Shown: positions 2,178-64,000, counted from the stretch's first letter. The stretch: DNA of 64,000 nt from Naegleria gruberi (GCA_000004985.1 GG738845.1); one strand, 5' to 3'. Notes: generated from the letters alone by a model not told the origin. Numbers and translations: made by a program.

Positions 2178-2179
2178 AT

Positions 2180-4159
2180 TTAGAAAGTGTAATTGTTTGG
2201 ACAATCCAAAGCCCAAGGGAATTTGTCTTGCAAAGTTTTTGAGAAGAGTTTGGCTACTGGTACGTCAGTTCTCTTGCACCATGCAATTGTAATTCTAGGA
2301 TCACAATAGTTTGTTCTTGATGTTGTAAGAGAAACTGTCTTGTTTTCAATTTTCATCTTTTTTTCTTGTTTGAGATCATCAATCTTCTTCTTAATGGCCT
2401 CAATCTTGGAGGAAATAGATTCAGGGGTTTTTGGTAAAAGTGGTTGTGTTGGCTTTTTAGGTGGCTTGCTCTTCTTTGCAGAACCCAAATATGCAGCAAC
2501 AGATTTTCCTGCTTTTTTGGCTTTTTCAGCTAATTCTTTTTCTTGTTGCTTGTGTTCTTCCAACTTTTGTTCATATTCTTTCATTAATTTTTCATTTTCC
2601 TTATCCCATTTTTCTTTTACGTCTTCATATCCTTTCTTTTTAACTTCCTTTAATGCTTGTTGGAGTCTTTCCAAGTAGGTTTCTTGATCTTCAATTTTCT
2701 TTTCCATAGTTTCGACTGAAGTATCAAATGTCTTTGGTGCTGCACGTTGATGGTTACAGAGAATAGCAACTTGTCTGTTGGCAGAGTTGAAAATGCTTAC
2801 TTTCTCAGCAACACTCATGTCACTAGTAATTTCTCTTTCCAACTTTTTCAATTCTCTATCCAATGTAATAGATGCATTATAGGTACGGAAAACCTTGGCA
2901 GATAATTTTTCCATATAGGACTTGAGGTGATCATTGAGTTTGGATGGATTAATCTTGTGGAAGAGCATGTCAGATTTTTTCTTTCCTTCAATAAATCCCT
3001 TTACACATTTGTAAACCTCCTTCTCAACTTCTACAGTATTTTCATATCTGATTGAGTCTTTACCAAGGAAATCAAATTTGATAGATGAAGGAGCAACCAA
3101 GCTCACATGTTCAACTCTTAAACTGCAACAACCAACTGTGTCTGCCTCTTCTTCATCATCTTTTTCATTACCGACTCTCAAAGCAAGCTTATCTATAAAG
3201 TAGATGGCAACTCCCAATTGTCTATCACTTTCTTGCTTCTCCGTCCATTGTTGTTTGTAATCTTCTCTTATCTTTTCTATGCAATCCTTCAAGCTTCTTG
3301 CAGTTTGATATTTCAGATAATCATTCATTGCCTTCATACTTGATCCACTGGCAAATTGTACATACTTGTTCTTATTGTTGATTGCATCTTTAAAAGCAGC
3401 AACCCACAATACTGTATTGTTGGATACAACACCACCCCATTTATGTCCTGTTGGTGGAGGCGGAACATCTTCCAATCTTCCAATATTAATTGTGATATCT
3501 TCAGGTTGAATTCTCTTTTTCAACATACCCATTTTAGGATGGGTACCTCTACCTCTAAATAATCCAGGAGGTTCAATCTTGAACTGTTGAACCTTTTCCT
3601 TCCGTCCATCAACAAGAGCATACTTGTATGCGTCCTCAAACTTTGCTTTTAATTCCTTTTCCGCCTTCTTTTCTTCTGAAGTTCTGTTTAATTTGGTCTC
3701 CTTTTCTGTCAATAAATGTTCCCAAATTTTAGAAAAATCACACTTGGCAAGAGATTTGATTGTGTGATTTTTCCCGAGAAGTTCCTTCCAAGCAGCCCAA
3801 AAATTTTCATTAAATTGTTTCTTCTGTATGTAATCCGATTCCAACATGGAGGCGTACATTGTTGCTACTTCCTCTTGTTCTGGGTCAAGCTTTACAGGTT
3901 TTCCATCATAATAAACAGGAATGCTATGAGGTTGATAATCTGGTGGGAATAATACACCATTATGCTTGAGTGTTTGCCACTTTTGATCAGAGTTTAAAAT
4001 TGACTGGATAGTATCATCCGATTGTGCCCACCATTTGTAAACTCCATCATCTGGTTTAGTGTCCATTTCATCCTTAGATTCTTCCTTCTTTACTTTCTTT
4101 GTGTCTTTTTTAACTATTACTACCTTTTCTTCCTCCTCACTCTCACTATCATCATCCAA
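2180..4159 (-). CDS. TOP1: DNA topoisomerase I
   Basis: 659-aa ORF with an acidic/Lys-rich N-terminus. Core and C-terminal catalytic region ends ...TSRTNYCDPRITIAWCKRTDVPVAKLFSKT..., matching the Top1 active-site Tyr motif (SKxNYxDPRI). A-rich context before the ATG. Confidence 0.9.
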   Translation of the reverse strand: MDDDSESEEEEKVVIVKKDTKKVKKEESKDEMDTKPDDGVYKWWAQSDDTIQSILNSDQKWQTLKHNGVLFPPDYQPHSIPVYYDGKPVKLDPEQEEVATMYASMLESDYIQKKQFNENFWAAWKELLGKNHTIKSLAKCDFSKIWEHLLTEKETKLNRTSEEKKAEKELKAKFEDAYKYALVDGRKEKVQQFKIEPPGLFRGRGTHPKMGMLKKRIQPEDITINIGRLEDVPPPPTGHKWGGVVSNNTVLWVAAFKDAINNKNKYVQFASGSSMKAMNDYLKYQTARSLKDCIEKIREDYKQQWTEKQESDRQLGVAIYFIDKLALRVGNEKDDEEEADTVGCCSLRVEHVSLVAPSSIKFDFLGKDSIRYENTVEVEKEVYKCVKGFIEGKKKSDMLFHKINPSKLNDHLKSYMEKLSAKVFRTYNASITLDRELKKLEREITSDMSVAEKVSIFNSANRQVAILCNHQRAAPKTFDTSVETMEKKIEDQETYLERLQQALKEVKKKGYEDVKEKWDKENEKLMKEYEQKLEEHKQQEKELAEKAKKAGKSVAAYLGSAKKSKPPKKPTQPLLPKTPESISSKIEAIKKKIDDLKQEKKMKIENKTVSLTTSRTNYCDPRITIAWCKRTDVPVAKLFSKTLQDKFPWALDCPNNYTF

Positions 4160-4370
4160 AATTCTTTTTCTTTTCTAAAGTTTTGTTGAACAATAAAAAC
4201 GCAACCCGCAAAAAAAAACTTACGTCGACCATTTTTTTTTAATTGTTATTTAATTTCAAAGAGGCGGGAAGGTTTTTTAACTGCAGTGTATTTTGGGTGA
4301 TGTATTTTTGCGCCAACTTGGTTATTTTAAAACTACAAAAAAAAGACATAAATTTTTAGCCAATTTTATA

Positions 4371-6514
4371 ATGCCAATTTCACTTTTGTATGATTTTGAA
4401 GAAACCTCGGAACAGATTATTATTAAAGTTAATCTTAAAGGAGCTACCAGAAGTAGTCTCTCCACCACTATTTCTGATTGTTATATCAAAGTCAATTGCC
4501 CACCTCATCATTTTTTGGAATTAGATTTGAAGGAGACAATTGTGTTGGATGACTCATCGAGAACACACAAAGTTGAGGGTCACAATGTTGTGTTTGTTTT
4601 GAAAAAGAAGGATAAAAAGGAGTGGGGTTCTGCAATCTTGAAACCAAATGATGAAGTTAGCAAGGAGATGATCGAATCTAGAAGAAAGGAGTCTCTGGAA
4701 AGACTCTCGAAAATGGAGGCAGAAGAAAGAGAGGAAAGAAAAAAACAAAGGACAAAAGAAGAACAGAGACTTTTAGAGCTTCATTGGCAAGAGGAAAAGA
4801 AAAAGAGAGAGGATATTGAAAGAAAGAAACAAGAAGAAAAGGAGCAAGCAGCACTTGAATTGAGTCAACTTAAAGAAAGAGATGAAACATCTTCCCAAAA
4901 ATCTGAAAAATACAGGGTTGCAAATCAAAGACAAGTAACTATTGAAGATATTACTGAGGAGGATATAGCTGTTGATGAAAAGAACTCAAATTATGAACAT
5001 TTTACTGCACCAATCAGACAGACAGAAACATCAACTATTAAGTTATCATTCACACCAAGAGCATTGAGGACTCCTGCAAGGGAGGACAAGGATAGTGAAA
5101 CATTGAAAAAATACGAAATTTGGAGAAGAAAAAACAAACCTGCAGAATTGGAAGAAAATGGTAAGTATTTATTACTCTAAATAAGGTAAAATTTCTAGTT
5201 GTGTGGGTGATTGAAAGAGGAGATAAATTTATGAAAAAGAAAAATTTCAACTCTGCAATTAGTGCCTACACTGAGGCTTTACACATGGAATCGAGTGTCA
5301 TTACATGTTTGCCGAAGAGAGCAGAGTGTTTCTTTGAAAGAAAAGAATATTTGAAGGCTATCGAAGATTGTACCAATTTTTTGAACACTGAATCAAAACA
5401 GAATGCTCAAATAGAAGATAAATTCCTGCTTCAAGCATTAACAACAAGATCGAAATGCTATAAGGAGATTTCAGATCTTAAGAAAGCACTGGAGGATGTG
5501 AAAATAGCATATAGAATTGACTCGAGTATCGAACTACAAAAAATGATAAGAGAGTTAGAAAATACTCTATCAAAAGAGTTGATGGAAGACAAAGATAAGG
5601 CTGATTTGTTGAAAGATCAAGCTGATCAAGAATACTTTGAACAAAGATTTGAAGAGGCCATCAAGCTCTATACTGATGCCATCAATCATAGAGCTCATTT
5701 CTTCAGAGCCTATAGCAACAGATCTGTTTGCTACCTTCAACTGAATAGATACTTTGAGTGCATTCAAGACTGTACATATATTCTTCAAAACATTCATTCC
5801 AAATCGGTTCCTGAGCCCGAAAAAAAGAACGCTGCTTCTTTCATCCTCAAATCATACCTGAGAAGAGGTACATGTCATTTTAAAGTTGGTGACTACAATA
5901 ATTCATATAAGGACTATGAGCAAGCATCAAGAATGGCTCCAGAGGATGAAGAAATTCTTGCCGACTTGGAAAAAGTCAACGAAGAACTTACCTCCAAACT
6001 TCAAGGGGATTGGTTAAAAAATACAGCCAACAACTTTTACTTAAGAGGAGATTTTGCTTCTGCTATTCATTCCTATACATTGGCTGTCAATCTTGACAAG
6101 ACGAATCCAGTTTATTATTCCAACAGAGCTCAGTGTTTCTTTAAAACTGGTGACTTTGTCAGATGTGTAAAGGATTGCAATACAGCCCTCTCCGTGCTAT
6201 CTGAAGATGATGAACTGAAAGTCGATCAAATTCTGGAAGAGGAAAAAAACGTTGAAGCAATGCAAGACTCAAAGAAGGAAAAGGAAGAGTTTCCGACTAA
6301 TCCAAAACTTACTCCTAAATTGCAACTTAAACTCTACCTTAAAAGAGCAGTTGCTTACAAGGAGATGGAAGAATACGAAAGAGCCTTTTTAGATATTCGA
6401 AGAGCTCACCAACTCGAGCCTGAAAATAAGGAAATCAAATCAGAATATGATTCTATTGAAAAATTATATGAGTTAACTAAAAAAGATGAAATCAAAATTG
6501 AGATAAAGGAATAA
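4371..6514 (+). CDS. CS-domain + TPR-repeat protein, DNAAF4/DYX1C1-like (dynein axonemal assembly factor 4-like). Two exons: join(4371..5160, 5199..6514).
   Basis: Exon 1 encodes an N-terminal p23/CS-like beta-sandwich (IKVNLKG...DCYIKVNCPPHHFLELDL...HNVVFVLKKKD) followed by a K/E-rich coiled coil. The track ORF ends at a G|GTAAGTAT donor at 5161. A 38-nt intron ends ...TTCTAG at 5198. Exon 2 continues in frame into TPR repeats (NFNSAISAYTEAL..., NNFYLRGDFASAIHSYTLAV...). CS-N/TPR-C domain order is that of DNAAF4. Confidence 0.6.
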
Positions 6515-6570: not shown

Positions 6571-9500
6571 ATGAGTAAAATGCTTGCAAAGATTCAAAAA
6601 TTGAAGAAGAGTAGAGCCACTTCTTCAACCAAACAAAACAAACATGAGGAAGAAGAGTATGATAAATCATTTTTCGGATATATGGATGATTCATCATCGG
6701 ATGATGACAATTTTGATCCATCAATTTATGGAGGAAGAGAAGTAGTTGGAAGTTTTGTTGAGAAGGATGGTAGTGATGATGAATTATCGGGACATGTGCA
6801 ATTTTCAACTAACAGTGATGACGATGATGAATATAATCTTACTGTTGGTGACCTTCAAAATGAAGAGGAACAACCAAAGAAGAAAAAGAAGACTACACCT
6901 GTGGTTTCAACACAAAAACCACAACAGGTTATAGAAGAACATAATGATGATAACGATCTGGAAATGAATGATGCAACCGATGACACTCACGAAACCAATG
7001 AAGACCATCAAGAAGAAACCTCAACAACTGCCAAAAAATCAAGTAATCTTGATGAATGGACAGAAGAGGAATTGAAAGAAAACGATTCTACCTCTTCCAC
7101 ATGGAAGAAGATTAAATTATCTGATGAGGATGCCTTTTCATGTGAAGGAATGTACTCTCTTGAAGTATTAGATGAAGATAATGAGGAATACAAGTCAATA
7201 ATGCGAAGTCTTTATGGTGATGACTATGACAAGAAAGATGAAAAGAAGGAAAATCCAACCAGTATTGAAAAAGATACCAGAACAAAGGAGGAAATCAAAA
7301 AGGAACGAAACAAGAAGAAAAGAGAAAGAAAGGCTAAAAAGGCAGAGGAAAAAAAGCTTGCTGAAAATACCACCCAAGAATTACAAACCAAAGTATCTCA
7401 AGAAGAAAAAATTGAAAAGGTAAAAAAGGAAAATGAAACAAAGAAATTAGAGAAGAAAAAACTTGAAACAACAGAACAAAAATTGGTCAAGAATGAACAA
7501 GAAAACAAAGTGCAAGAAGAAACTAAAAAAAAGAGAGAAAAAGCTGGTGATTTGAAAGTTGTAAATGAAAATGCAGATACTGCTCCATTTGAAGAAGTAG
7601 CTTCTAAAATGACTGCTTGGAATTTCAATGATACCATTCAATTACATGAACAAGTTGTTCGTAATTTGTATCGCCTTGGATTTTACAAGCCAACACCAAT
7701 CCAAGAAGAATCAATTCCTAAAGCTATTGGTCAACAAGCTGATATTTTAGCTGCTGCTGAAACTGGTTCAGGAAAGACATTGGCATTTGTTTTACCAATT
7801 ATTGATGAGTTGATGAAATTGAAAGAAAATGAACCTGCTCAACAAGTCAAAGATGATGAATCTAGAACTGTAGATGGAATTTCACTCAATGAAATTGGTG
7901 TTAAAAATAAGAGAAAGAAACTTTTACGCGATGTTAAAAAGGACATGTTCCAACTCAGATCACTTATTCTTTTACCTACAAGAGAATTAGCATTGCAAGT
8001 TTGTTCACATATTGAAGCTGTCATTCGAAACACATCCCTAAAGGTTGTTGGACTAGTTGGTGGACTAAATGAAGAGAAGCAAATCAGAGAAATTCACGTA
8101 CAAAAACCTGATATTATTGTTGCTACACCTGGTAGATACTGGTTTTATATTGATAAGGGTATGTTTGCCTCCAACTCAATTCTTGGCCTCAGATTTTTGG
8201 TGATTGACGAAGCTGATAGAATGGTAGCTGATGCTCACTTTTTCGAACTCCAATCCATTTTGAGATATATTACCATTGAAAGATTCAAAAGAAGTCAACA
8301 AGGAGAATCAAACTCAATCTTGAGAAAATTCATCTCTTCTGCAACTCTTACTTTTATTGATGATAAGTGGAAGAAGCAATTATATGAATTATCACTCCAA
8401 GAACAAGAAAAGAGAGAATCCAATTCAGAAGATTATATCAACCAAAAAGAAGAAGAACAGGTTGAAATACCTCAAGAACAAGATGCTGAGCATAAGAAGA
8501 AAGAAAAAGAAACTAAAACACAAAAGATTATCCAAAAAATTCTTGCCATTTTAGATATGAAAAATCCAGTGATGGTTGACTTGACTACCAGCAATTTATT
8601 AGCCCACACTCTCCAAGAAGCCTTCATACAAAGTACCAGAGAAGATAAGGTTCTCTATCTTTACTATTTCTTGACAATTTATTCTGGTCGTACAGTAGTC
8701 TTTACAAATAATATTAAGGTTGTTAGATTTATTGGTAATATTTTGAAAGAGCTCTTTAATAAGGGACCTAATGCCAAGCAAACAAGTATTACAATTGTTT
8801 CATTACATGGTAAGATGGACCAACAATCTCGTTTTAAGAATTTGGAAAAGTTTAAAAAGGCTGAAAATAGTATCTTGATTACTACCGACGTATTTGCTCG
8901 TGGTATTGATATTCCTGATGTAGAAAATGTTGTACATTTCAATATTCCAATTGATACCAAGACTTATATCCATCGTTGCGGACGTTCTGGAAGAGCAGGC
9001 AAACAAGGATTTAGTTTGGCTATTGTTTCTCCGGAGGAACGTAAATCATTCTATCATATTCTAAGAGATACTCGAGGTGAAGGTAGTGAAATGCCTCCTT
9101 TCCCGATGTCACATCCTGATTTGTTAGAAGTTTTACGTAAGCGTGTAAATTTGGCAATTGAAATTGAAAAATTGGAAGAAAGAAAGGCTGCCAGAACTCA
9201 AGAACAAGATTGGTTTACAAAACAAGCCGCTGCTATGGATATTGATTTAGATGAACGATTTTTCAAGGACTTGAAGAAAGATAAGGATTTGAAACTCAAA
9301 GGATTAGCTCCTGATCAAGAACGTAAGCTTGCAACTATGAAGAAACAACTTGAAGGCTTACTCAAACAAAATGTTTTCATGCAAACAAAGACAAGTATTT
9401 CAGGAACTAATCGTCTATTTACTGTTGGTGATCCAAGAAGTGTTGATCTTATCAGAGCTAGTCTTAGTGGATTGAGAGAAAACAAAGCAAGAGCTGATTT

Positions 9501-9582
9501 AGAAGAAGCCCAAAAGCCTTCCGAAGTTCCAACTAAAAGTCAATCGAAAAAAAGAAAGAGAAATCAAAAAAAGAATAAATAA
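6571..9582 (+). CDS. DEAD-box ATP-dependent RNA helicase with long acidic/Lys-rich N-terminal extension (nucleolar DDX24/Mak5-like)
   Basis: Helicase motifs present: Q motif (F..PTPIQEESIP), motif I AAAETGSGKTLAF, Ia PTRELALQ, TPGR, DEAD (VIDEADRM), SAT, HGKMDQQSRF, ARGIDIP, HRCGRSGRAG. Start codon lies in AAAAAAAAATG context. Subfamily assignment is a guess. Confidence 0.85.
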   Translation: MSKMLAKIQKLKKSRATSSTKQNKHEEEEYDKSFFGYMDDSSSDDDNFDPSIYGGREVVGSFVEKDGSDDELSGHVQFSTNSDDDDEYNLTVGDLQNEEEQPKKKKKTTPVVSTQKPQQVIEEHNDDNDLEMNDATDDTHETNEDHQEETSTTAKKSSNLDEWTEEELKENDSTSSTWKKIKLSDEDAFSCEGMYSLEVLDEDNEEYKSIMRSLYGDDYDKKDEKKENPTSIEKDTRTKEEIKKERNKKKRERKAKKAEEKKLAENTTQELQTKVSQEEKIEKVKKENETKKLEKKKLETTEQKLVKNEQENKVQEETKKKREKAGDLKVVNENADTAPFEEVASKMTAWNFNDTIQLHEQVVRNLYRLGFYKPTPIQEESIPKAIGQQADILAAAETGSGKTLAFVLPIIDELMKLKENEPAQQVKDDESRTVDGISLNEIGVKNKRKKLLRDVKKDMFQLRSLILLPTRELALQVCSHIEAVIRNTSLKVVGLVGGLNEEKQIREIHVQKPDIIVATPGRYWFYIDKGMFASNSILGLRFLVIDEADRMVADAHFFELQSILRYITIERFKRSQQGESNSILRKFISSATLTFIDDKWKKQLYELSLQEQEKRESNSEDYINQKEEEQVEIPQEQDAEHKKKEKETKTQKIIQKILAILDMKNPVMVDLTTSNLLAHTLQEAFIQSTREDKVLYLYYFLTIYSGRTVVFTNNIKVVRFIGNILKELFNKGPNAKQTSITIVSLHGKMDQQSRFKNLEKFKKAENSILITTDVFARGIDIPDVENVVHFNIPIDTKTYIHRCGRSGRAGKQGFSLAIVSPEERKSFYHILRDTRGEGSEMPPFPMSHPDLLEVLRKRVNLAIEIEKLEERKAARTQEQDWFTKQAAAMDIDLDERFFKDLKKDKDLKLKGLAPDQERKLATMKKQLEGLLKQNVFMQTKTSISGTNRLFTVGDPRSVDLIRASLSGLRENKARADLEEAQKPSEVPTKSQSKKRKRNQKKNK

Positions 9583-9583
9583 T

Positions 9584-9865
9584 TTAAATTTGTTTTGAAA
9601 TATAGTACACTATTTGACAATTGTAATCAATTATTTAAATATTCATCTACCTACCATTATTTCCTCTAATAAAAGCGTCTCCGTATGTTCCAGTCTGCAC
9701 TCCATCAACATATTCCTTTGTTTGTTCCAAAGCAACATTCATATATCCATCTAGACAGGTTAAAACTCCTCTATATTCAGCACCAGAATTTAATTTAACA
9801 ATCACTGGTTTTCCGACAATATCATTTTTTAAAAAGGTTGTTGGGTCCAAATTGTTTGCTGACAT
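9584..9865 (-). CDS. LSM6: U6 snRNA-associated Sm-like protein LSm6. Two exons: join(complement 9655..9865, complement 9584..9609).
   Basis: Exon 1 encodes ...PVIVKLNSGAEYRGVLTCLDGYMNVALEQTKEYVDGVQTGTYGDAFIRGNN, matching LSm6 almost residue for residue. The track ORF reads through a G|GTAGGTAG donor. A 45-nt intron (9610..9654) ends CAAATAG. The terminal mini-exon encodes VYYISKQI* (LSm6 ends ...IRGNNVLYIS...). The stop lies 2 nt from the stop of the convergent DEAD-box gene. Confidence 0.8.
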
Positions 9866-9929
9866 TTTTTTTGTTGATAAAATTATTTTTAAACTTTCAA
9901 TTTTTTAATTTTTTTAATATTTACAAGTT

Positions 9930-10970
9930 TTAAAGTTGTTCTGGCCTTGGATGTGATTCCTTACCAAAGTTTGGTGTCACTCTGACAAATTCTGCCTTTC
10001 TTTGCAATTCTTTAATATCTTTGGCACCTCCATAAGTGAGGGCACTTCTCAATGAACCACAGAAATTATCAATAACATCTTGAGCAGAACCTGTACATTT
10101 GGCATGGAATGAAACACCTTCTGGAACAGTACCTTTCTTCAAACCTCCATAGAAATCATCTTGGAAATCCTTACTGGCCTGACCTCTATACTTGACAAGA
10201 GTAATTTCTTGACCGTTTTCTAAAGTTTTCTTTGATTTTGGAGCAGCACTTTCCATTGTCTTTGCAAAAATACTTCCCATCATGACTGTACTAGCACCAG
10301 CAGCTAAAGCAAGAACCATATCTCTTTCAAAAACAATACCGCCATCAGCAATAATTGGAACACGGAGTTTACGAGCTAATTCAGCACAATTCTTGATGGC
10401 AGAAAATTGTGGTAATCCGAAACCTGTCTTGATTCTTGTAGTACAAGCAGCTCCACAACCAACACCAACTTTAACTGCATCAGCACCAGCTGTGACAAGA
10501 TCTTGATAGCCCATTGGTGTACAAACATTACCAGCAATGATTTCCTTGTGTGGTAATTGTTTCTTTAAATTTCTAATAAATGTACACATAGCATCACTGT
10601 GACCATGAGCAATATCAATAACTACACCTTTAGCTCCCAATTCCAACAATTTTACAGTTGATTCCATATCATTGAGACCACAAGAAACAAAACAATTATT
10701 TTCATATTTTTTCACCCATTCAGATTGTTTTTCAAATGAAGTGAAACGATGGAATAATGGAATACCTCCATTAGCAATCAAAACATCAGCCAATTCATCA
10801 CCAATAACTGTATCCATATTAGCAGCAAGGAGTGGCATTCCAATCTTTGTATTCTTTGTCAACCAAGTATCTAATGAAGGGTGCAAACGTGAAGGAACGT
10901 TATTATATTGAGGAACAAGTGTAACGTCATCAAATGTCAAACACACTTCTTGGTGAATATTGCTCATCAT
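9930..10970 (-). CDS. GMPR: GMP reductase (GuaC/GMPR, IMPDH-family TIM barrel without CBS insert)
   Basis: 346 aa, collinear with bacterial and animal GMP reductase: [15 protein letters not shown], catalytic-Cys loop [26 protein letters not shown]. Length is typical of GMPR (about 345 aa), not IMPDH. Confidence 0.85.
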
Positions 10971-54168: not shown

Positions 54169-57100
54169 ATGGCTTCCTCTTCTCAGCCAAGCATATTGTC
54201 ATTAGTAGAGAGGCTTTGTCGAAAACTTCTGTCCGGTCAGCAACAGTATAATTCTTATTCGGAAACACATGGTTGGTCATATAGTAAATTCTCAACTCAA
54301 ATTGTTGTTAACCAAGATAATTCCGATAGAGTTAGTGAAAAACTTGTAAAGAACACCAAAAGGACTTGTTTTTCTATCCTGATAGATAGGAATGAAAATG
54401 TAGGTTATATTGTTCTGTTAAAGGATTTATCATATTTAGTATATTCCCCCATTCGATTTTTCTGAATCATCAGATCAATTTCCATCTAAACTTTGTGAAT
54501 TGGATTATAGAATAGATACCCTGGTATGCACACTCAAATTGAGAGGTCAAGAGTCGACAGCCCAAAAAATTGAGCGTTTATTTCAATCCCTAAAACTATT
54601 GGATATGAAAATGAGCTCATTTCTTCTTCTTTTATTTAATGATTTAATTTCTCAAAACATTGACCAAAATTATGAGGAAAATAATTTAATTTTTGATATT
54701 TCATCCATTCAATCAGTTAGTGGAGAAAGTAAAAATTCAATGATATTGGAGGATTTGAATTTAAGTAGCCAATCTGATTTTTTCCCCAATGTACTTGATT
54801 GTGCCAGCAATACTCAATCTAATACTAGTTTATATTCAATGCAACCACTTTCAAAGATTGAAGGCTTCTTTGAAAATTTTGAATATTCTGACATATCAAG
54901 TCTAAAGAGACCACTAAGTGATTTTCAATCAGTTTTAAAATTGAAACCAGAAAAAAAGAAGCGATCTATCTATTTCACAGAACAAAGCAGTGACAAACTT
55001 TTTGAACACAAACATTATTTTGAGAGACTTTGTTTTGGATTGAATCCTCAACAAATACAAGAGTCTGATCTTGTAAATTTTGGCATATTAGCCCTACAAG
55101 GTATTTCATCGGATGTATTTATTTGGGATTCTGTAAAGTTTTGCTTTAAAATTCAACCAGTGAGGATAAAGACATTATCATTTCTAGGACTACGACAATC
55201 TTTGCAGGTAGTGGCCAACATGGGATCACTATTCAAACGTTTAGAAATAATAACAGAATATACTCAACTAGATTTAACCTATACTGGAAAATGCTTGCAG
55301 AGTTGTGGACAAGGTCTTTCTCATGTCATGAATTGGTACAAGTCATGTATACTAGATATTCCAAATATTCTAACTACTCTAGTCTCAGACTATTCAGGAT
55401 GTGATTGTAGAATTACAATTCTTAACTTGATACATCATATTACTCCTTTAAAGCAACGTTTAGAAGTGTTGTCTGAAATATTTGAATGTGACATACAAGA
55501 GAAAAATGCAAATGATGAATTCTCCATACTTCTTACTGATAATATACAGAGTAAGAATCTGTATATATCTAGTAGAGTTAAACAACTGCCCAAGGGAGCA
55601 AAGCTCATCAATTTAATGTATGAAAAAATTCAATCTATTGAAAATTCAAATAGGCCAGATTCTACGAATATTCTTCTTATATTACTCTACTATACTTTCC
55701 AGCCATACCTATATTGGATAAATAAGTGGATATTTTTTGGTGAGCTTGCTGATGATTTTAGTAGAGAGTTTTTTATTCAAAAGAATACCTCAAATCATTG
55801 TACTGAAATGTGGAATGCTCACATTGTGGATGCCCAACAAATACCTTCATGCATTTTAAAATGGGGAAATGACATATTTACTACTGGCAATACCGTAGGA
55901 ATAATCAAGTCTTGTAGACCAGATCACTACATTCTCAAAGATTTCATTTCCTCAACAATTAAATCTATCACAATTCTTTTCACTGAACAAGATTTGAAAA
56001 TTTATGAGCTTCAATGTGAAAAATTACAAAAATTACAACACAAAGACGCAACCTTAGAGATGAAAACCCAATTACAACAATTGGAAGTAAAAATTAGAGC
56101 TCAAGAGGAAAGACTGAAATTTGGTGAAGAATTATTGGATAGATTTCAAGAAGAGGAGAACAAATTACGAGATAAATTAAAGAAAGAGATCTTGGAAGAA
56201 TACAGAAAGAAAATGAATGTAGATATTTTTGAGGAGAGTCTGAACCTCAATAAGACACTGAATGAAATCACTCCCAAGCAACAGGATGAAGATTCTCTGA
56301 TGAGTGAAGCTCCTTCTCAATTGATTATTGAAGATTTAGACAAGCTGATTGATGATGAAGATGCAACCTTATTAATGAGAGTAGAATCTTTAAGTGTTTC
56401 CAACTTGTTGGAGAGTCAAAGGCCATTCATAGAGTTACCAATTGAGGTAGCAACTATGAGGAGTATTTTTTCAGTATTATTCCAGCAAAAACACATGATC
56501 GACAGCATTTTTGTGAAGATGTTATTTCACGACTATAGATTGAGCGAGTATTTTAGTATTATTAATAATTTTTTCCTTTTTCGAGCTGGTGACTTTCATG
56601 ATTGTTTTGTAAATATTTTGCATGAAGGCATGAAAAAGGGTATTCTGTATTCTGATATTTATATTGTAAATAGAGCTATGCAAGAGGCATTAAAGATTAC
56701 AGGCCATGCAGAGAGAGATGAAAGTATTGTATCCAAATTGAACTTCCGTATTGATGAATCTAAGGTTATTAATTTTTTAGATTACAACTCTGTTACAAGT
56801 CTCGATCATTTGTTATTACATTATGACATTGAGTTTCCTGTCTCGTTAATATTAACACCAATCATGATGGGAAAATATGCATCAATTCATGCACTCTTAC
56901 TTAAAATCAAACGGATCGATTGCTCACTGTTGGATATTTGGACTATTTTCAAGGTAAAGACTAGAATAACCAATCAAAGACTAAAGTATCTCCAACTATT
57001 TAGACAAGAGATTCAGCATTTTATAACGGTATTCAAAACGTTCATCTTTGTAGAGGTTATTGAATCATCCTTTTCTGATTTTGTTAAAGAATTACTTCAC

Positions 57101-57433
57101 CAAAAAGATAAGGATTTGAATATGGAAAGATTGTTATCAATTCATCAAAAGTTTGTTGATTCATTAATCAAACAGTGTCTACTCTCTACATCAGCTAAAC
57201 CTATTATGGATATTATTTTGAAAATGTTTGGATTAATTTTAAAGTTCAAAATTCAAATTGAAAATGTGGACATAACAGATTTGCCAGATACCCATTATGC
57301 AATAATTACACAAACTAGAAAAGAATTTATAGATTGTGCCCTATTTTTGGATTCATTAATGGACAGAGTAGCTCTGCAATCAACAACATCCAAGTTTGGA
57401 AAATTCAGAATGAATTATAAATTTACATACTAA
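54169..57433 (+). CDS. Gamma-tubulin complex component (GCP/Spc97-Spc98 family, GRIP motifs). Two exons: join(54169..54399, 54440..57433).
   Basis: Track ORF 1 reads through AAT|GTAGGTTAT (phase 0 donor at 54400). A 40-nt intron ends ATATTTAG at 54439 and joins in frame to ORF 2. GRIP1-like region, coiled-coil insert, and C-terminal GRIP2-like region (FRAGDFHDCFVNIL..., YDIEFPVSLILTPIMMGKYASIHALLLKIKRIDCSLLDIW). Start in CCAAAAAAAAATG context. Confidence 0.65.
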
Positions 57434-57438
57434 TTTAT

Positions 57439-57867
57439 TTACACAAATACTAAAACCAATAATGAAATTACAAATAAAATTGCAGACATGCAAATAATGT
57501 TCGAATCATTACACAAATCATCAGCACAACAATATAAATTTCTCAATTTTTTACAAGTAGAACTATCTGTGGCCCCATAAATATATTTCACAGTACCATC
57601 AATTACATCTTGCTGAGAACATCCATTATATCCACTCCTACATTTAGCAGCAATTTTTGAACAATAATTGTCAGTATAATTATAAGTGACAACCGTCAAA
57701 CTAGTCATGTTATATCCATCACTAACTCCAGTATAACATTGTTGTGCTCCTTCACATTCGGTGGTTAAATTTGTCAACACACAAACCACAAAAGTAATTA
57801 ATAATATCAGTATAATATTTTGGATTTGTTTTCTAGTGATGGATAATAGTTTCATTTTTTTTAACAT
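57439..57867 (-). CDS. Small secreted/GPI-anchored Cys-rich protein with Ly6/uPAR (LU, CD59-like three-finger) signature
   Basis: Signal peptide (MKLLSITRKQIQNIILILLITFVVCVLT). About 90-aa mature domain with 9-10 Cys ending in the LU hallmark ...LYCCADDLCNDSN (compare CD59 YYCCKKDLCNFN). Then a short hydrophobic C-terminus (MSAILFVISLLVLVFV) typical of a GPI-attachment signal. N-glycosylation sites present. Alternative start at the second ATG (57855, AAAAAAAATG). Confidence 0.55.
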   Translation of the reverse strand: MLKKMKLLSITRKQIQNIILILLITFVVCVLTNLTTECEGAQQCYTGVSDGYNMTSLTVVTYNYTDNYCSKIAAKCRSGYNGCSQQDVIDGTVKYIYGATDSSTCKKLRNLYCCADDLCNDSNIICMSAILFVISLLVLVFV

Positions 57868-57969: not shown

Positions 57970-59471
57970 ATGCACCTTCCCAGAGAATCAACATTTAAAA
58001 GGTCATTTCTAGTGAGTGTTCGGAATTTACTCTTCCAATCAAAGTTTAGATCATTTCTCCTACTGCTATGGTTATTGTTCTTTATTTATTGTAGTTATTA
58101 TTATTTCTTATTGTCTTCTATACAGGGATCGGAGAAGGCAGCGAGAATAAATACAATGCACCATGATGATCAACAAGGCGCTGGTACCACCAATAATATT
58201 CAGAATGATCTGAAGGGCAGCAATCAAAAACCTACTGGTGCTGTTGTGGAGCCATCATCACCTACACCTATCGTTCGTGTAATCAAAAAACCAATTATTA
58301 ATCTGGTAAAAGAGGAGAGGAAGAAAATTGATAATTTGGAAGATTTTAAAGAGAAGGGTGAACAGGAAACAGTTTCAAATTTCATCATTCCAATTATAAT
58401 ATTTACCTACAAACGTGCGGAATATTTGAAAGAGACTATTGATACTGTTTTAAAGTATGTGGTTAATAATTTAAAAATTTAGTGATTAATTGCTGAATAA
58501 GGTATATGCCATCTTCTGGATTTCATATTTACGTTTCTCAGGATGGAGATGATGAGAGTGTTAAAAAGGTTGTGGATAGTTATGGAAATACCATTAAGAA
58601 GCATTTCCAAAGAGAGAGAAATGTCATTATTCCTGATAAAATCTCCAATGTTGTGGCATACTACTCAATTGCACAACATTACAAATATGGAATCAATAAG
58701 GTTTTTGAATCGGATAAAACTTATGACAGAATAATTATATTGGAAGAGGATTTAAAAGTTTCTCATGACTTTTTCGATTACTTTTCAACCATGTCAAGAT
58801 TACTTGATCGAGATACTTCATTATTCTGTGTTTCTGCTTGGAATGATAATGGATTGGAGGAATTTGCACAAAATCCTTCATCATTTTACAGATCTGATTT
58901 TTTTCCAGGTCTTGGTTGGATGATGAAAAGAAAATTGTGGGAGGAAGATTTTGAAGCCAAATGGCCACTCGGATTTTGGGATGATTGGATCAGAGAAGGT
59001 CCGAACAGAAAGGGCAGAGCTTGTATAAGGCCAGAAATTTCCAGAACATTTACATTTGGATTCAAAGGTGGAGCCAGCTCTAACCAGTTTTCAAATTATT
59101 TGAGTAAAATCAAATTGAATACCGGAACAGTTGATTGGAATAATTTTGATATTAATTCTCTCGTGAAGAGCAAGTATGATGAGGAATTGATTGATCAAGT
59201 CAAATCAGCAACTCCAATAACAATACACGATCTAAATGATGCCACCAGAGAGAATACTAAAATAAGAATTGAGTACAAGAGTACAGAGGAGTATTTAAAT
59301 GTAGCCAAGGTACTTGGAATTATGGCTGACATTAAGGCAGGTGTGCCAAGAGGTGCTTACTTGGGTATTGTTACAGTTAAACTGAAACGTGGAAATGTAT
59401 TGTTCATTACTCCTCCAACTTTTTCACCACAAACATACACTAATCTTCCTCCTTTCAAACTTACTCAATAA
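57970..59471 (+). CDS. MGAT1: Alpha-1,3-mannosyl-glycoprotein 2-beta-N-acetylglucosaminyltransferase (GnT-I / MGAT1). Two exons: join(57970..58454, 58502..59471).
   Basis: Type-II topology with an N-terminal signal anchor (FLLLLWLLFFIYCSYYYFLL). Catalytic domain collinear with animal GnT-I: IIPIIIFTYKRAEYL, TVLK|YMPSSGFHIYVSQDGDDE across the splice, EDD (ILEEDLKVSHDFFDYF), CVSAWNDNG, FFPGLGWMMKR, FWDDWIR, RACIRPEISRT, KAGVPRGAYLGIV. Donor AA|GTATGTGG, 47-nt intron, acceptor AATAAG at 58501. Confidence 0.85.
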
Positions 59472-59508: not shown

Positions 59509-62500
59509 TTATCTTACATCGTAAACGAAACGAACTGCCAATAAGGTTCTTCCCATTGGATCAATAAGTTTACACTTAACTCTTGTCTTTGAGAGGAGGG
59601 AATACACAACATCTCGTTCAGGCAGTGTAATAACGTAACGTTCTTCACGAGGCTCCAACTCTGAAACTTGAGAAACAAATTCAATTCTAGAACCAACAGT
59701 ATCGATCTTTTCGTGGAAAGAACATTGTGAAAGATATTCATTGACATAGAAACGAATTTCCAACTTATACTTCCATCTCTTTCTCAATTTGATAAGAATT
59801 GGATTGGATTTGACTTCAATTGGTTTAACATTCTCTTTTTCTTTTTCTGAGGCATGTCTTGTAACGTAGACATAGGCAGCTTCTAAAACTACACCTGGCT
59901 CCTTATGGTTTACACGAACAACCAAATTATTGTTGTGTGGTTCAATAAATGTTTCATTTGCATTGCTATCTTCAACAAAGTTAATATTAACAACATCATT
60001 ACCACCTGGAGAGAACGAGAAAGTATCAGCAATATTAATTGGAAGTTTCTTTTGAGATTTCTTCATGATTGCATTTGATAATACGTCCATAATTTCAGAT
60101 TTCTTATCAGAATCGTACAAGTAATCATATGAACTTGGAACGTGTAAACAAAAATTATCATCGGCAAAAGGACTCATAGAGGCTCCTTCGATTTCATCCA
60201 AATCAATGATACGTTTAACTTTGAATTCTTGTGGATCGATATTATAAATGTGCTTATCAGTAATAATCATGATACGTTTTTGAGTTTTAAGATTCTTATT
60301 AATCTTTAACACTTCAGAGGCAAACAACACTTGAGTATCACCATTCTTTTGAAGGAGTTGTTGAACTAATTTGTTATAGTGATTTGGAAGATAATCACCC
60401 ATATATTCTCTCATCATTGAGGCCTTTTTTCTTGCCTTTCTACCCTTGTATAAATCTGAACCAATACTTTGTTTGACTTCGCTTACCATATTGTTCTTCT
60501 CTTCTTGTTGATTTTCTTGTTTGTTCTCTTCAACTTCCATATTATTAACACGAATGAGAGCACCTGTACTAGTTGGGAAAATTAGTGTTGATTTAACTGT
60601 CAAATCATCTTGGAAATCAAGAGTTTTAACACCCTTTCCTTTGTGAACAGTATAGACAAGTTTATCGTCAACTTGTAATTCTAGTGACTTGTTTTCCACC
60701 TTCTTTTTGGCATCCATAATGGCCTTGATAATTTCAGTCTTTGAAGAGCTTGAGAAAATGTAATCGTATTCACCTGGAACTTTAAGAATAAAGAAACCAT
60801 CTCTCATAGTACTAACACTAATACCAGCAATCTCCTTGAATGGAATTCTTCTCAACACCTTCAAATCATTATCCAAGTTATAAACAGCTTGATCAGTGAC
60901 TAGTAATTTACGATCTTGAACCAAGTAACGTTTGTTAATCTTTTGAACAAGACCACTGTATAATAATTGAGAATCACCAAATTCCTTCTTGATCTTTTCG
61001 AATTGTTTAGTACTGGCAACGTGTAAATAATCACCCAAGTACCATTTGAGGAGAGAGTCCTTTCTTCTGAGTTTTTGACCTTGATAAATATCTTGAACAA
61101 CATTGGTATCCAAATCATTACTCATAACTTCTTCAACCTTAACTTGAACTTCGGCACCAAAATCAGTTGCAGTAACAACATTACCACGAATAATATCAAC
61201 TTCCTTAAAATCTAATCTTTGTTCGAAACCCTTCTTCATTCTGTGTTTAATTGAATTCTTGACGAAGAATTTCATTTTAGCACGAGTGGCATTTGTGAAA
61301 CTTTCTGATAAGACTTTAAGAATTTCAGTCTTTTTGTTACTTTCAAAGATGTAATCATATTCATCTGGAGTGTGAATTACAAAGAAACCATCTGTATATG
61401 GAGAAACTGTAATGGCCTTCAATCTTCTCATTGGGATTTGTCTGTTGATAATATAACCATTTGGATCGATATTATAGATGGCTCTCTCAGTAATTAACAA
61501 TATTCTTTCCTGTTTCTTATACTTTTTGTTATATTTTGTTACAACACTGGAGAAGTGAACTTCTTGATCACCAAAATCTTCAGTGATCTTCTTCATCAAA
61601 TCAGATTTAGCCAAGTGAATATAGTCACCATAGAATTTCTTGTGGAAGGATGTTTTTCTTCTCAATTTCATGCCATCAAAAACATCATCACTTGGTTTTG
61701 AACTAATCACTAAACCTTCAGTCGTAACTTCAATGGTTGTACCTGACTTGGCATTGTAATTCTTAACATATTTAACAGTCTTTGACATAGCTTTAAGTGG
61801 ATGGAAAACAAATTCTTCACCAATATCAACACGAAGAGTCTTGACACGATGATCATCAGAATTTACAGAAGCCACTGCTTGCTTATTAGAATCATCTGTT
61901 GTTGAATTTTCTCCTGCATTGGATGATGATGGATCCGTATTGTTGGCATTATTGGTTGTATTGTCACTGTTAGGAGTATTGGATGGTGCTCCACTATTAT
62001 TATCCTTATTAATGTGTGAGAAGAATAAATCGTACGAGTCACGAATGGCCTTCATCACTTCATTCTTACTGTCAGCTTCGAGCATAATATCATGGAGTTG
62101 TGGTACAGAAACAATGAAAACTTCATCGTTGAGAGCTGAACATTTCAAACTGTCAATCATCTTGTATTGAACTCTCTTTAAAACTGTGTATGTCTTTGGA
62201 TCAACAAGGTAGATTGCAGAAGGAGAGACAACCAATAATTTTCTCTGTCTTTCGCCTGTTTTGAAATTAATTTGGTTTACAGGTCTTTGGAATAAATTAT
62301 CACATTTTTCACCAAATGTTTTTTCGAGAGCTTTTTGTAAATGTTGTTCTGCCAATACTTTTTGTCTGGCTTTGTACTTTCTAAAGTTTCTTTGAATGAT
62401 GGAGGCCATTTCAATTCTTCTCGATGCCACTTTTTCATCCAATGCAAATAATTGAATTGGAGTTTGGAGGAAAACCTTTGATTTGCCTAGGGAATATTTA

Positions 62501-64000
62501 GATTTTGGAATTTTCATTTCTTGAAGAATTTTCTTTACACCAGCTTTAGGAGTTCCATTCCAACGTGGCCATGTTGAATCTGAACAAAGTTTGTAACGAT
62601 CCAAGAATTTATCAAAGTCCATCTTGAAATAATAACCACTATTTCTAACGTGTACATTTTCAGTGATACCTAAATATTTAACTTGTTCCATGACAACTTC
62701 ATCAATAAATTCATTTGGTTTCTTCTCATGGTTTGGTTTGATACATTTTACAAAGTGATGATGTTTTCCTTTCATTTTACCAACAAATTTGAAAACATCT
62801 TCAGTAAATTGCATTGTTGTGGTTTTTTGCAATTTACCAAATTCAATTTTTTCATCTCTAGGGAAGATTTGTTGCATGAGACCTGATTGTGATTTTCTCA
62901 TAGCAAAAACTAAATCTTCAAACAGTGTATCCTTATTCATTGAAATCCATCCTTCAACGTCATATGTTACTTTACCAGCAAAATGTTTCAAATCAAATAT
63001 TAATCCTGCAAACTTGGATTTTTCATAGCAAGCCCATCCAGTTCCAAAATTAGTATTCAATTTTTGCATGTATCTTTCATCAGTACAATTTGGAAGGAGA
63101 GATTCTTCATCCAACAATTTGTAAATACCAAATGGTTTTCCTTCAATAATTTCAACTGTTTGATCAACATTTTTCAATGGAATTGGATTATATGGAATAC
63201 CCTCTCTTACATATTCATCTTGTTCAGCTTGTAACCATTTTTGCACATGTTGCTGAATCTTTTCATTTACAAAGTTAATGTTCAATTGTTCTAGAGTATT
63301 TTTTTCCTTTGTATGTTTTTCATAAATTTCAAAACCATAAATATCAAGAATGCCTATAGAATATTTTGCATCATCAGGTCTTTTTACAGCTGAATTGATA
63401 CGACGAATGAGCCATGAAAATAATCTTTCATAGATACCCTTTGCAAGTGCATCTCTATTGAATGAAGCCATTGTAGAATTTTGAACTGTTTTTGTTGCTT
63501 CCTTACCAACGTGAATAGTTCTATATAAAAGTGCCTCTCTGAGTGTATCAAATTCAACTTGGAATAAGAAAGCTGCTGTTCTCAATGTATCCTTATTATC
63601 AATTTCTGCTGTGTCTTTACCATTTACATTTAAATCCTTAAACTTGACATTACCCAAGTGTAGAATACCAGCACAAAGTCTGAAAATTTCCATTTGTTCT
63701 AAAACTGAAATACCAGCTTCAGTCATGCTTTGTCTAGTATTCTTAAATTCTAACTTGTCATTCATGCCGTTAATAGTTAAGGAACTAGATGAAGAATTTA
63801 AACCGTTTGCAGTTAAATAATTGAATTTTTTTGCTTCTTCCAATTTCAAATCCTTTTTCATTGATTCATCTGCACCGGCACACATTTGATAGAAAATGTG
63901 GAAATTTCTTTCACCTTTTCTTTGTGACACTACACGTGATTTTTCTAACAGTGATGTTGTAATGTGTGCTCCTTCTAATTGTCCTTTGAAATTGAAGAAT
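59509..64000 (-). CDS. Class-I (unconventional) myosin heavy chain with tandemly repeated TH1 tail domains; 5' end (N-terminal motor) lies beyond the window
   Basis: Frame is open to the window edge. Motor motifs read ...GAHITTSLLEKSRVVSQRKGERNFHIFYQMCAGA..., then actin-binding and converter regions. IQ motifs (ASIIQRNFRKYKARQ). The tail holds three complete plus one partial copy of the myosin-I TH1 pattern (K/RLRRK..S....YLGDY...F..V..KINK..K.Q.R.L.ITD.A.YN.D......R.I....I..ISVS...DGFF.L.VP.EYDY...S..KTEI...). Copies are separated by Asn/Ser-rich linkers. Confidence 0.8.
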   Translation of the reverse strand, partial: FFNFKGQLEGAHITTSLLEKSRVVSQRKGERNFHIFYQMCAGADESMKKDLKLEEAKKFNYLTANGLNSSSSSLTINGMNDKLEFKNTRQSMTEAGISVLEQMEIFRLCAGILHLGNVKFKDLNVNGKDTAEIDNKDTLRTAAFLFQVEFDTLREALLYRTIHVGKEATKTVQNSTMASFNRDALAKGIYERLFSWLIRRINSAVKRPDDAKYSIGILDIYGFEIYEKHTKEKNTLEQLNINFVNEKIQQHVQKWLQAEQDEYVREGIPYNPIPLKNVDQTVEIIEGKPFGIYKLLDEESLLPNCTDERYMQKLNTNFGTGWACYEKSKFAGLIFDLKHFAGKVTYDVEGWISMNKDTLFEDLVFAMRKSQSGLMQQIFPRDEKIEFGKLQKTTTMQFTEDVFKFVGKMKGKHHHFVKCIKPNHEKKPNEFIDEVVMEQVKYLGITENVHVRNSGYYFKMDFDKFLDRYKLCSDSTWPRWNGTPKAGVKKILQEMKIPKSKYSLGKSKVFLQTPIQLFALDEKVASRRIEMASIIQRNFRKYKARQKVLAEQHLQKALEKTFGEKCDNLFQRPVNQINFKTGERQRKLLVVSPSAIYLVDPKTYTVLKRVQYKMIDSLKCSALNDEVFIVSVPQLHDIMLEADSKNEVMKAIRDSYDLFFSHINKDNNSGAPSNTPNSDNTTNNANNTDPSSSNAGENSTTDDSNKQAVASVNSDDHRVKTLRVDIGEEFVFHPLKAMSKTVKYVKNYNAKSGTTIEVTTEGLVISSKPSDDVFDGMKLRRKTSFHKKFYGDYIHLAKSDLMKKITEDFGDQEVHFSSVVTKYNKKYKKQERILLITERAIYNIDPNGYIINRQIPMRRLKAITVSPYTDGFFVIHTPDEYDYIFESNKKTEILKVLSESFTNATRAKMKFFVKNSIKHRMKKGFEQRLDFKEVDIIRGNVVTATDFGAEVQVKVEEVMSNDLDTNVVQDIYQGQKLRRKDSLLKWYLGDYLHVASTKQFEKIKKEFGDSQLLYSGLVQKINKRYLVQDRKLLVTDQAVYNLDNDLKVLRRIPFKEIAGISVSTMRDGFFILKVPGEYDYIFSSSSKTEIIKAIMDAKKKVENKSLELQVDDKLVYTVHKGKGVKTLDFQDDLTVKSTLIFPTSTGALIRVNNMEVEENKQENQQEEKNNMVSEVKQSIGSDLYKGRKARKKASMMREYMGDYLPNHYNKLVQQLLQKNGDTQVLFASEVLKINKNLKTQKRIMIITDKHIYNIDPQEFKVKRIIDLDEIEGASMSPFADDNFCLHVPSSYDYLYDSDKKSEIMDVLSNAIMKKSQKKLPINIADTFSFSPGGNDVVNINFVEDSNANETFIEPHNNNLVVRVNHKEPGVVLEAAYVYVTRHASEKEKENVKPIEVKSNPILIKLRKRWKYKLEIRFYVNEYLSQCSFHEKIDTVGSRIEFVSQVSELEPREERYVITLPERDVVYSLLSKTRVKCKLIDPMGRTLLAVRFVYDVR

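Follow-up and report, generated by a model that had tools for sequence, protein, structure and literature searches.

The window analyzed here, 64,000 nucleotides of Naegleria gruberi DNA (GCA_000004985.1, GG738845.1), ends within a minus-strand gene that encodes a myosin motor followed by a single IQ motif, four tandem tail homology 1 (TH1) domains, and a strongly conserved C-terminal domain (CTD). We consider it likely that the visible region is the 3' ~4.5 kb, or the 3' four-fifths, of a heterolobosean class I myosin gene of the Naegleria/Willaertia lineage that is intron-free as far as it can be seen; this judgment applies jointly to the identity of the gene, its architecture, the mechanism proposed for its tail, and the role proposed for the CTD. 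The sole new element would be the fold assigned to the CTD by structure prediction.

A class I motor and a tail of four TH1 units

The frame was open from position 63999 to the stop codon at its 3' end (Table 1). It extended for 4,491 nt and 1,496 codons with zero interruptions and ran off the end of the window. Judging from an ortholog in Willaertia magna (ABK040_005772; P0002) and from a metagenomic locus (L001), the coding sequence goes on past base 64000 for about 220 N-terminal codons, and locus L001 suggests that two to three short introns are to be expected there. The P-loop, switch I, and the N terminus fall outside the window and are found in both of these orthologs. In agreement with the initial annotation, which described a gene cut off by the window with the motor N terminus unseen, the Myosin_head match started only at profile position 183. 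Residue numbers given below are counted from the window edge.

The visible part of the motor contains switch II (LDIYGFE), the TEDS site, and the converter. Its top relatives of solved structure in the PDB all belonged to class I (Myo1b, 368.7 bits; Dictyostelium MyoE, 356.7 bits; Myo1c, 328.7 bits), and the best match outside this class was a myosin II, at 318 bits. An inserted proline at the lever base is unique to class 1 (Kollmar and Mühlhausen, 2017; PMC5583752). In the window protein, the lever-base sequence FLQTPIQLF (GKSKVFLQTPIQLFAL) aligned with FIRNPRTLF of Myo1b (GRSKIFIRNPRTLFQL), and thus the class 1 insertion is present. The proline (FLQTPIQLFALDE) stands just before the IQ motif, the two together occupying residues ~514 to 546. 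The motif itself (IIQRNFRKYKAR) lies between the converter and the tail and fits IQxxxRxxxxR by direct reading; its Pfam score, 15.2 bits, is under the cut-off of 20.3. The TEDS position, which is a T, E, D, or S located 16 residues upstream of DALAK, is occupied by a glutamate (in GKEATKTVQNSTMASFNRDALAK) that matches the aligned glutamate of Myo1b. Motor similarity, the lever-base proline, and the TEDS glutamate together support the assignment to class I that had been made initially, and the heterolobosean multi-TH1 myosins have been placed in class 1 in the literature (PMC5583752).

A Pfam scan of the whole product returned Myosin_head and four stretches of Myosin_TH1 (PF06017). When the four tail segments, TH1a to TH1d, were scanned singly, every one exceeded the gathering threshold for this family, 31.1 bits (Table 1). 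The initial annotation, which had proposed three to four tandem TH1 domains without an SH3 domain and would have been refuted by a single significant TH1 match, was therefore right as to their number and kind. No SH3, TH2, MyTH4, or FERM domain was found in the Pfam scan of the product. Neither a MyTH4/FERM nor a plain PH identity of the repeats was retained, since FERM_C1_MyoVII, for which the cut-off is 27 bits, reached just 14.7 to 16, and the PH_3 matches merely overlapped the PH-like cores of the TH1 units. TH1d matched the Myo1c tail 4R8G in a phmmer search (E = 1.9e-6), and an AlphaFold2 (AF2) model of TH1d, the sole TH1 unit modeled, had 4R8G_E as its top Foldseek match (E = 7.2e-10).

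The finer anatomy of the tail differed from the one first proposed. Units b, c, and d do score high, as expected of the three conserved domains of that proposal, but TH1a, which had been called degenerate, is not a relic. Its core (58.8 bits against a local TH1 hidden Markov model [HMM]; beta1-beta2 sequence, NQINFKTGERQRKLLVV) is set apart from its C-terminal beta extension by a low-complexity insertion; the Acrasis, P0004, and P0005 orthologs do not have this insertion, and their TH1a is contiguous. In the insertion-free P0004 and P0005 proteins, TH1a spans positions 27 to 186 of the 198-position TH1 profile at 98 to 104 bits and is thus a real TH1 that lacks the N-terminal basic stretch only. 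The W. magna counterpart of the beta extension matches TH1 profile positions 135 to 184. The long low-complexity stretch therefore lies inside TH1a, not between units as a linker. Likewise, the DGFF..YDY..KTEI block, which had been taken as the end of each unit, is the end of the PH-like core in the middle of a TH1 and is followed by some 60 to 70 more residues per unit.

A search with the tail returned five colinear proteins with 85, 77, 52, 51, and 54% identity. The closest (P0001, 85%) came from JGI metagenome 3300002220; W. magna ABK040_005772 (77%) is 1,719 residues long at full length, an Acrasis kona protein named "myosin" (P0003) was 52% identical, and the other two were environmental sequences. 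The W. magna and A. kona orthologs likewise carry four TH1 stretches. A further N. gruberi protein, XP_002682373.1 (D2V147; P0015; 1,826 residues), shares with the window protein its lineage, its end domain, a motor of class I, and a set of four TH1 domains, but has large motor insertions that the window protein lacks. The two are 33% identical in the motor and 44% identical in the tail; XP_002682373.1 is thus a paralog, and the window protein belongs to a second paralog group, the named members of which are W. magna ABK040_005772 and the A. kona "myosin."

The architecture had been thought possibly undescribed. Our searches of main-text literature found no description of myosins with tandem or multiple TH1 domains; the statement sits in the supplement of Kollmar and Mühlhausen (2017; PMC5583752, Additional file 1, section 1.7 and Fig. 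S5), where tandem TH1 duplication in heterolobosean class 1 myosins is recorded in passing, along with the occurrence of TH1 with other domains outside myosins. Thus, the gene adds a family member and not a new architecture: it belongs, as part of a second paralog group, to a kind of class I myosin already known from Heterolobosea. No functional work on heterolobosean multi-TH1 myosins was found in the literature.

Among better-known myosins, the window protein resembles the short-tailed Myo1b, Myo1c, and MyoE in its motor, its lever-base proline, its acidic TEDS residue, and the succession of IQ and TH1. These proteins have several IQ motifs and one TH1, whereas the window protein has one IQ motif, four TH1 domains, and an extra, predicted C-terminal beta-sandwich. 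With the long-tailed amoeboid myosins I (TH1-TH2-SH3, for example, P0048), it has in common that it is an amoeba class I myosin with membrane-binding TH1, but it lacks both their GPA/TH2 region and their SH3 domain, its tail being lengthened instead by TH1 duplication. A heterolobosean myosin I with a single TH1 was also seen in W. magna (KAL9645638.1; P0124; 1,470 residues). Its best Myosin_head stretch begins at about residue 495, and this late start may correspond to the long N-terminal extension of some Heterolobosea class 1 myosins (PMC5583752).

Age and lipid-binding signature of the repeats

TH1b, TH1c, and TH1d are mutually 35 to 37% identical (BLASTP E values of 1e-36 to 1e-45), and TH1a is 25 to 35% identical to them, a similarity that, on alignment of the sequences, is far beyond chance. 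Identity to the units at the same position in other species was higher, at 49 to 90%. In a neighbor-joining tree the units clustered by position over five species, with bootstrap values of 81% for a, 80% for b, 92% for c, and 60% for d; this is a simple tree, and its placement of TH1a, on a long branch within the d clade, was taken as an artifact. In the same tree, the paralog from N. gruberi had its b, c, and d units next to the matching positional clades, with weak support. The only repeat at the DNA level was a 78-nt segment of 73% identity linking TH1b and TH1c. The positional grouping across species indicates that the duplications are ancient: by sequence comparison, they are older than the divergence of Naegleria and Acrasis and probably also older than the split of the paralogs. 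The pairwise comparison suggested initially for telling recent from ancient duplication thus came out on the ancient side.

Hokanson and colleagues are said to have found in 2006 that K892 and R903 are required for phosphoinositide binding in Myo1c. These residues of the PH-like core are conserved in the window protein, where they align with a lysine and an arginine of TH1d, and the equivalent columns (K57 and R67 of alignment A1) were invariant in 18/18 TH1b, TH1c, and TH1d units. In TH1a, the residue equivalent to K892 is a glutamine. TH1b and TH1c have net charges of +8 and +9, respectively, and the linkers are acidic.

The protein would be a single-headed, short-lever motor linking actin to membranes. 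TH1a occupies the usual post-IQ position of a TH1; without the lysine, it is probably a mainly structural unit adjacent to the light chain. The three further complete units, b, c, and d, stem from the ancient tandem duplication. Each of them keeps both Myo1c-type basic residues and a basic stretch at its N terminus, and the tail could therefore hold several headgroups of acidic lipids at a time, which would lead to high avidity and slow release from the membrane and, if the units have diverged in specificity, perhaps to coincidence detection. It is plausible that a multi-TH1 tail raises membrane avidity. Several observations weigh against this proposal. The net charge of TH1d is 0, and simple electrostatic avidity may therefore not hold for every unit; the long-term positional conservation of the units is as compatible with distinct roles as with additive avidity; and no lipid-binding, localization, or expression data were found for this myosin or any ortholog.

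Distinct roles are the core of an alternative in which the four TH1 domains are specialized, each for a different lipid or protein (phosphoinositides, actin, or light chains), so that the tail would work as a coincidence detector or as a bridge between two membranes or structures. We hold this to be possible but rather unlikely. It would explain why the positional units have been distinct since before the Naegleria/Acrasis split (clades at 60 to 92% bootstrap), why they resemble their positional orthologs more than one another, and why they differ in charge and, in TH1a, in the loss of the lysine; Pfam, moreover, describes TH1 as "actin- and lipid-binding." The invariance of the K/R signature in b, c, and d argues instead for a shared mode of headgroup binding, and positional conservation would also result from ancient duplication followed by ordinary purifying selection. 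That the multi-TH1 frame is an artifact seems to us extremely improbable, whether as a pseudogene, as a recent internal duplication confined to a single genome, or as a fusion of neighboring genes in assembly or annotation. Apart from the unusual length of the tail, nothing speaks for it, and against it stand a frame of 4,491 nt without a stop, purifying selection on all parts, minimal repeats at the DNA level, and a colinear layout that recurs in several metagenomes and in the independently assembled genomes of W. magna, A. kona, and N. gruberi. The colinear orthologs rule out an assembly or fusion artifact, and a recent internal duplication was rejected on the identity between units, the single DNA repeat, and the positional clades described above.

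A RhoGDI-like fold predicted for the C-terminal domain

TH1d is followed by a conserved domain of 128 residues of which the initial annotation made no mention. This CTD is the most conserved part of the protein, with identities of 95, 91, 76, 72, and 73% to five orthologs, compared with 83, 76, 62, 56, and 58% for the motor. An AF2 model built from 14 sequences was confident (pLDDT, 87.9; pTM, 0.80) and is an all-beta sandwich. In a Foldseek search, the top 31 matches of this model were all RhoGDI (E values of ~1e-8; TM scores of 0.68 to 0.77), with PDE6-delta, NPC2, and UNC119 coming next at E values of ~1e-5. A second, independent AF2 model, comprising TH1d and the CTD, reproduced both the Myo1c and the RhoGDI matches. 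The predicted fold is thus closest to that of RhoGDI, an Ig-like isoprenyl-binding domain to which PDE6-delta and UNC119 are more distant parallels.

Homologs of the CTD were found only at the C termini of TH1-containing proteins. The CTD directly follows TH1 in a W. magna protein of 911 residues with three TH1 domains and no motor (KAL9653901.1; P0019), which represents either a relative without a motor or a gene model that is truncated. Weaker CTD-like matches (20 to 22 bits) came after TH1 in two more proteins, one of RhoGEF-TH1x2 and one of kinase-TH1 layout, the latter of which clusters with N. fowleri XP_044568291.1.

TH1 itself is still more widely distributed. A profile of the 18 TH1b to TH1d units gave 2,859 matches among 1.84 billion representatives, and the TH1 domains nearest to those of the window myosin occur outside myosins, mostly as tandem pairs (P0027, P0030, P0032, P0033, P0034, P0047, P0066, and P0087; locus L004, positions 817 to 4823). 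Their contexts are SH3-RhoGEF-TH1x2, RhoGEF-TH1x2-CTD, CH-CH-TH1x2, PX-TH1x2, TH1x2-Drf_GBD-FH2 (a formin), and Pkinase-TH1-CTD. In these organisms, TH1 appears to be a module in wide reuse that targets regulators of actin and Rho to membranes.

A number of results weigh against taking the CTD for a RhoGDI-type domain. A Pfam scan of the CTD gave no match at E ≤ 10, and an hmmsearch of the CTD profiles (A2 and A3) against the PDB did not return RhoGDI. Alignment of the CTD to RhoGDI by hhalign was in structural register, though at probabilities of 21.7% and 3.8%, and a RhoGDI HMM matched the CTDs at E values of at least 0.03; the RhoGDI homolog set consisted of vertebrate RhoGDI1 only and was too uniform for a strong profile. 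The N-terminal regulatory arm with which RhoGDI binds the switch regions of GTPases is absent: TH1d directly precedes the CTD, with no helical arm. Finally, the RhoGDI likeness comes entirely from predicted structures, and in the model of TH1d plus CTD the relative orientation of the two domains was undefined (pTM, 0.58), which suggests a flexible junction. Unlike RhoGDI, which is free-standing and has the arm, the CTD closes a TH1 array to which it is fused, has no arm, and shows no detectable kinship to RhoGDI at the level of sequence profiles. With no significant match by Pfam, hmmsearch, hhalign, or the RhoGDI HMM, homology to the RhoGDI family (PF02115) is not supported at the sequence level. 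Given this and the missing arm, we speak of a RhoGDI-like fold and not of a RhoGDI family member. PF26659, which is listed on the orthologs, was also rejected as the family of the CTD; it is PH_DUOX, matches faintly inside a TH1, and was not seen in fragments made of the CTD and at most the TH1d tail.

Most likely, the CTD adds a specific partner-binding site to the tail, possibly one for a lipidated (prenylated) small GTPase. The chances appear about evenly balanced that it is instead a generic Ig-like (E-set) interaction domain or structural cap with neither a lipid or prenyl pocket nor a Rho link; its likeness to RhoGDI would then be a convergence of folds, a reading with which the absent arm and the failed profile searches agree, and against which stand the uniform run of RhoGDI matches and their recurrence in the second model. 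A more specific proposal, which we put forward tentatively and think unlikely to be correct in full, is that the CTD is a divergent RhoGDI-type prenyl-binding module. Joined to TH1 in a TH1-CTD supermodule, it would connect phosphoinositide-rich membrane with prenylated GTPases of the Rho family, which it would capture or deliver. In Heterolobosea, this supermodule may recur in two groups of myosin I paralogs, in a protein without a motor, in a RhoGEF, and in a protein kinase. The Rho-family GTPases encoded by Naegleria number 25, next to a single canonical RhoGDI (PMC9928731). The supplement of PMC5583752 contains no mention of the CTD, and a search of it for "GDI" was empty; in the literature, no paper was found that ties a myosin to a RhoGDI-type domain.

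Neighboring genes and significance

The window has a G+C content of ~33% and encodes long, mostly uninterrupted eukaryotic genes. A gene for N-acetylglucosaminyltransferase I (GNT-I) converges on the 3' end of the myosin gene. A gap of 23 nt divides it into two open reading frames (ORFs) and points to a short intron. The neighboring 142-residue cysteine-rich ORF has hydrophobic N and C termini and resembles a secreted or GPI-anchored protein; it belongs to no Pfam family, and an exact look-up found no identical protein on record. Just downstream of the myosin ortholog, both locus L001 (positions 7234 to 10020) and A. kona locus L003 (positions 7930 to 10710) carry a gene for an XRN 5'-3' exonuclease, which is not in the window and may be a remnant of synteny lost in the genome analyzed here.

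Table 1. Coordinates of the myosin gene and its neighbors in the window, with residues numbered from the window edge
Feature	Position	Strand	Residues	Basis or description
Myosin motor domain, C-terminal ~3/4	62464..63999	-	1-512	Pfam Myosin_head positions 183-678/679, E = 9e-135
Single IQ motif, RRIEMASIIQRNFRKYKARQ	62362..62415	-		Direct reading of sequence
TH1a, PH-like core	62008..62364	-	546-664	Canonical post-IQ position; Pfam 43.8 bits, E = 2.9e-11, profile 24-136
Low-complexity insertion in TH1a	61864..62007	-	665-712 (48 residues)	N/S/T/D-rich
TH1a, C-terminal beta extension	61696..61863	-	713-768	Colinear with contiguous TH1a of P0004 and P0005
TH1b	61126..61695	-	769-958	Pfam 121.2 bits, E = 5.2e-35; basic N-terminal stretch, PH-like core, beta extension
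TH1c	60550..61101	-	967-1150	Pfam 117.5 bits, E = 7.1e-34
Linker after TH1c	60466-60549	-		Acidic, Q-rich
TH1d	59896..60465	-	1179-1368	Full-length TH1; Pfam 147.6 bits, E = 4.3e-43, profile 1-185/185
CTD	59512..59895	-	1369-1496 (128 residues)	Predicted all-beta sandwich; no Pfam family
Stop codon of myosin gene	59509..59511	-		Read from sequence
GNT-I gene, first ORF	57970-58482	+
GNT-I gene, second ORF	58506-59471	+		Pfam GNT-I positions 123-426, E = 6e-106
Cysteine-rich ORF	57439-57867	-	142 residues
Gamma-tubulin complex component gene	54500-57433	+		GCP_N_terminal and GCP_C_terminal domains

Naegleria serves as a model of crawling driven by actin, and the genus includes the pathogen N. 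fowleri. For the myosin I family, the tandem-TH1 tail is a natural setting in which to test how such a motor is tuned by its avidity for membranes. The CTD is the more useful lead, being unannotated, very strongly conserved, predicted to be RhoGDI-like, and always placed after TH1. Were the prenyl-binding proposal true, this myosin would, as an actin motor, carry or position a Rho GTPase directly, a type of Rho GTPase-myosin cargo link of which no report was found in the literature. Binding of prenylated GTPases by the CTD would constitute a direct physical link between a class I motor and Rho signaling in a lineage far from animals and fungi.

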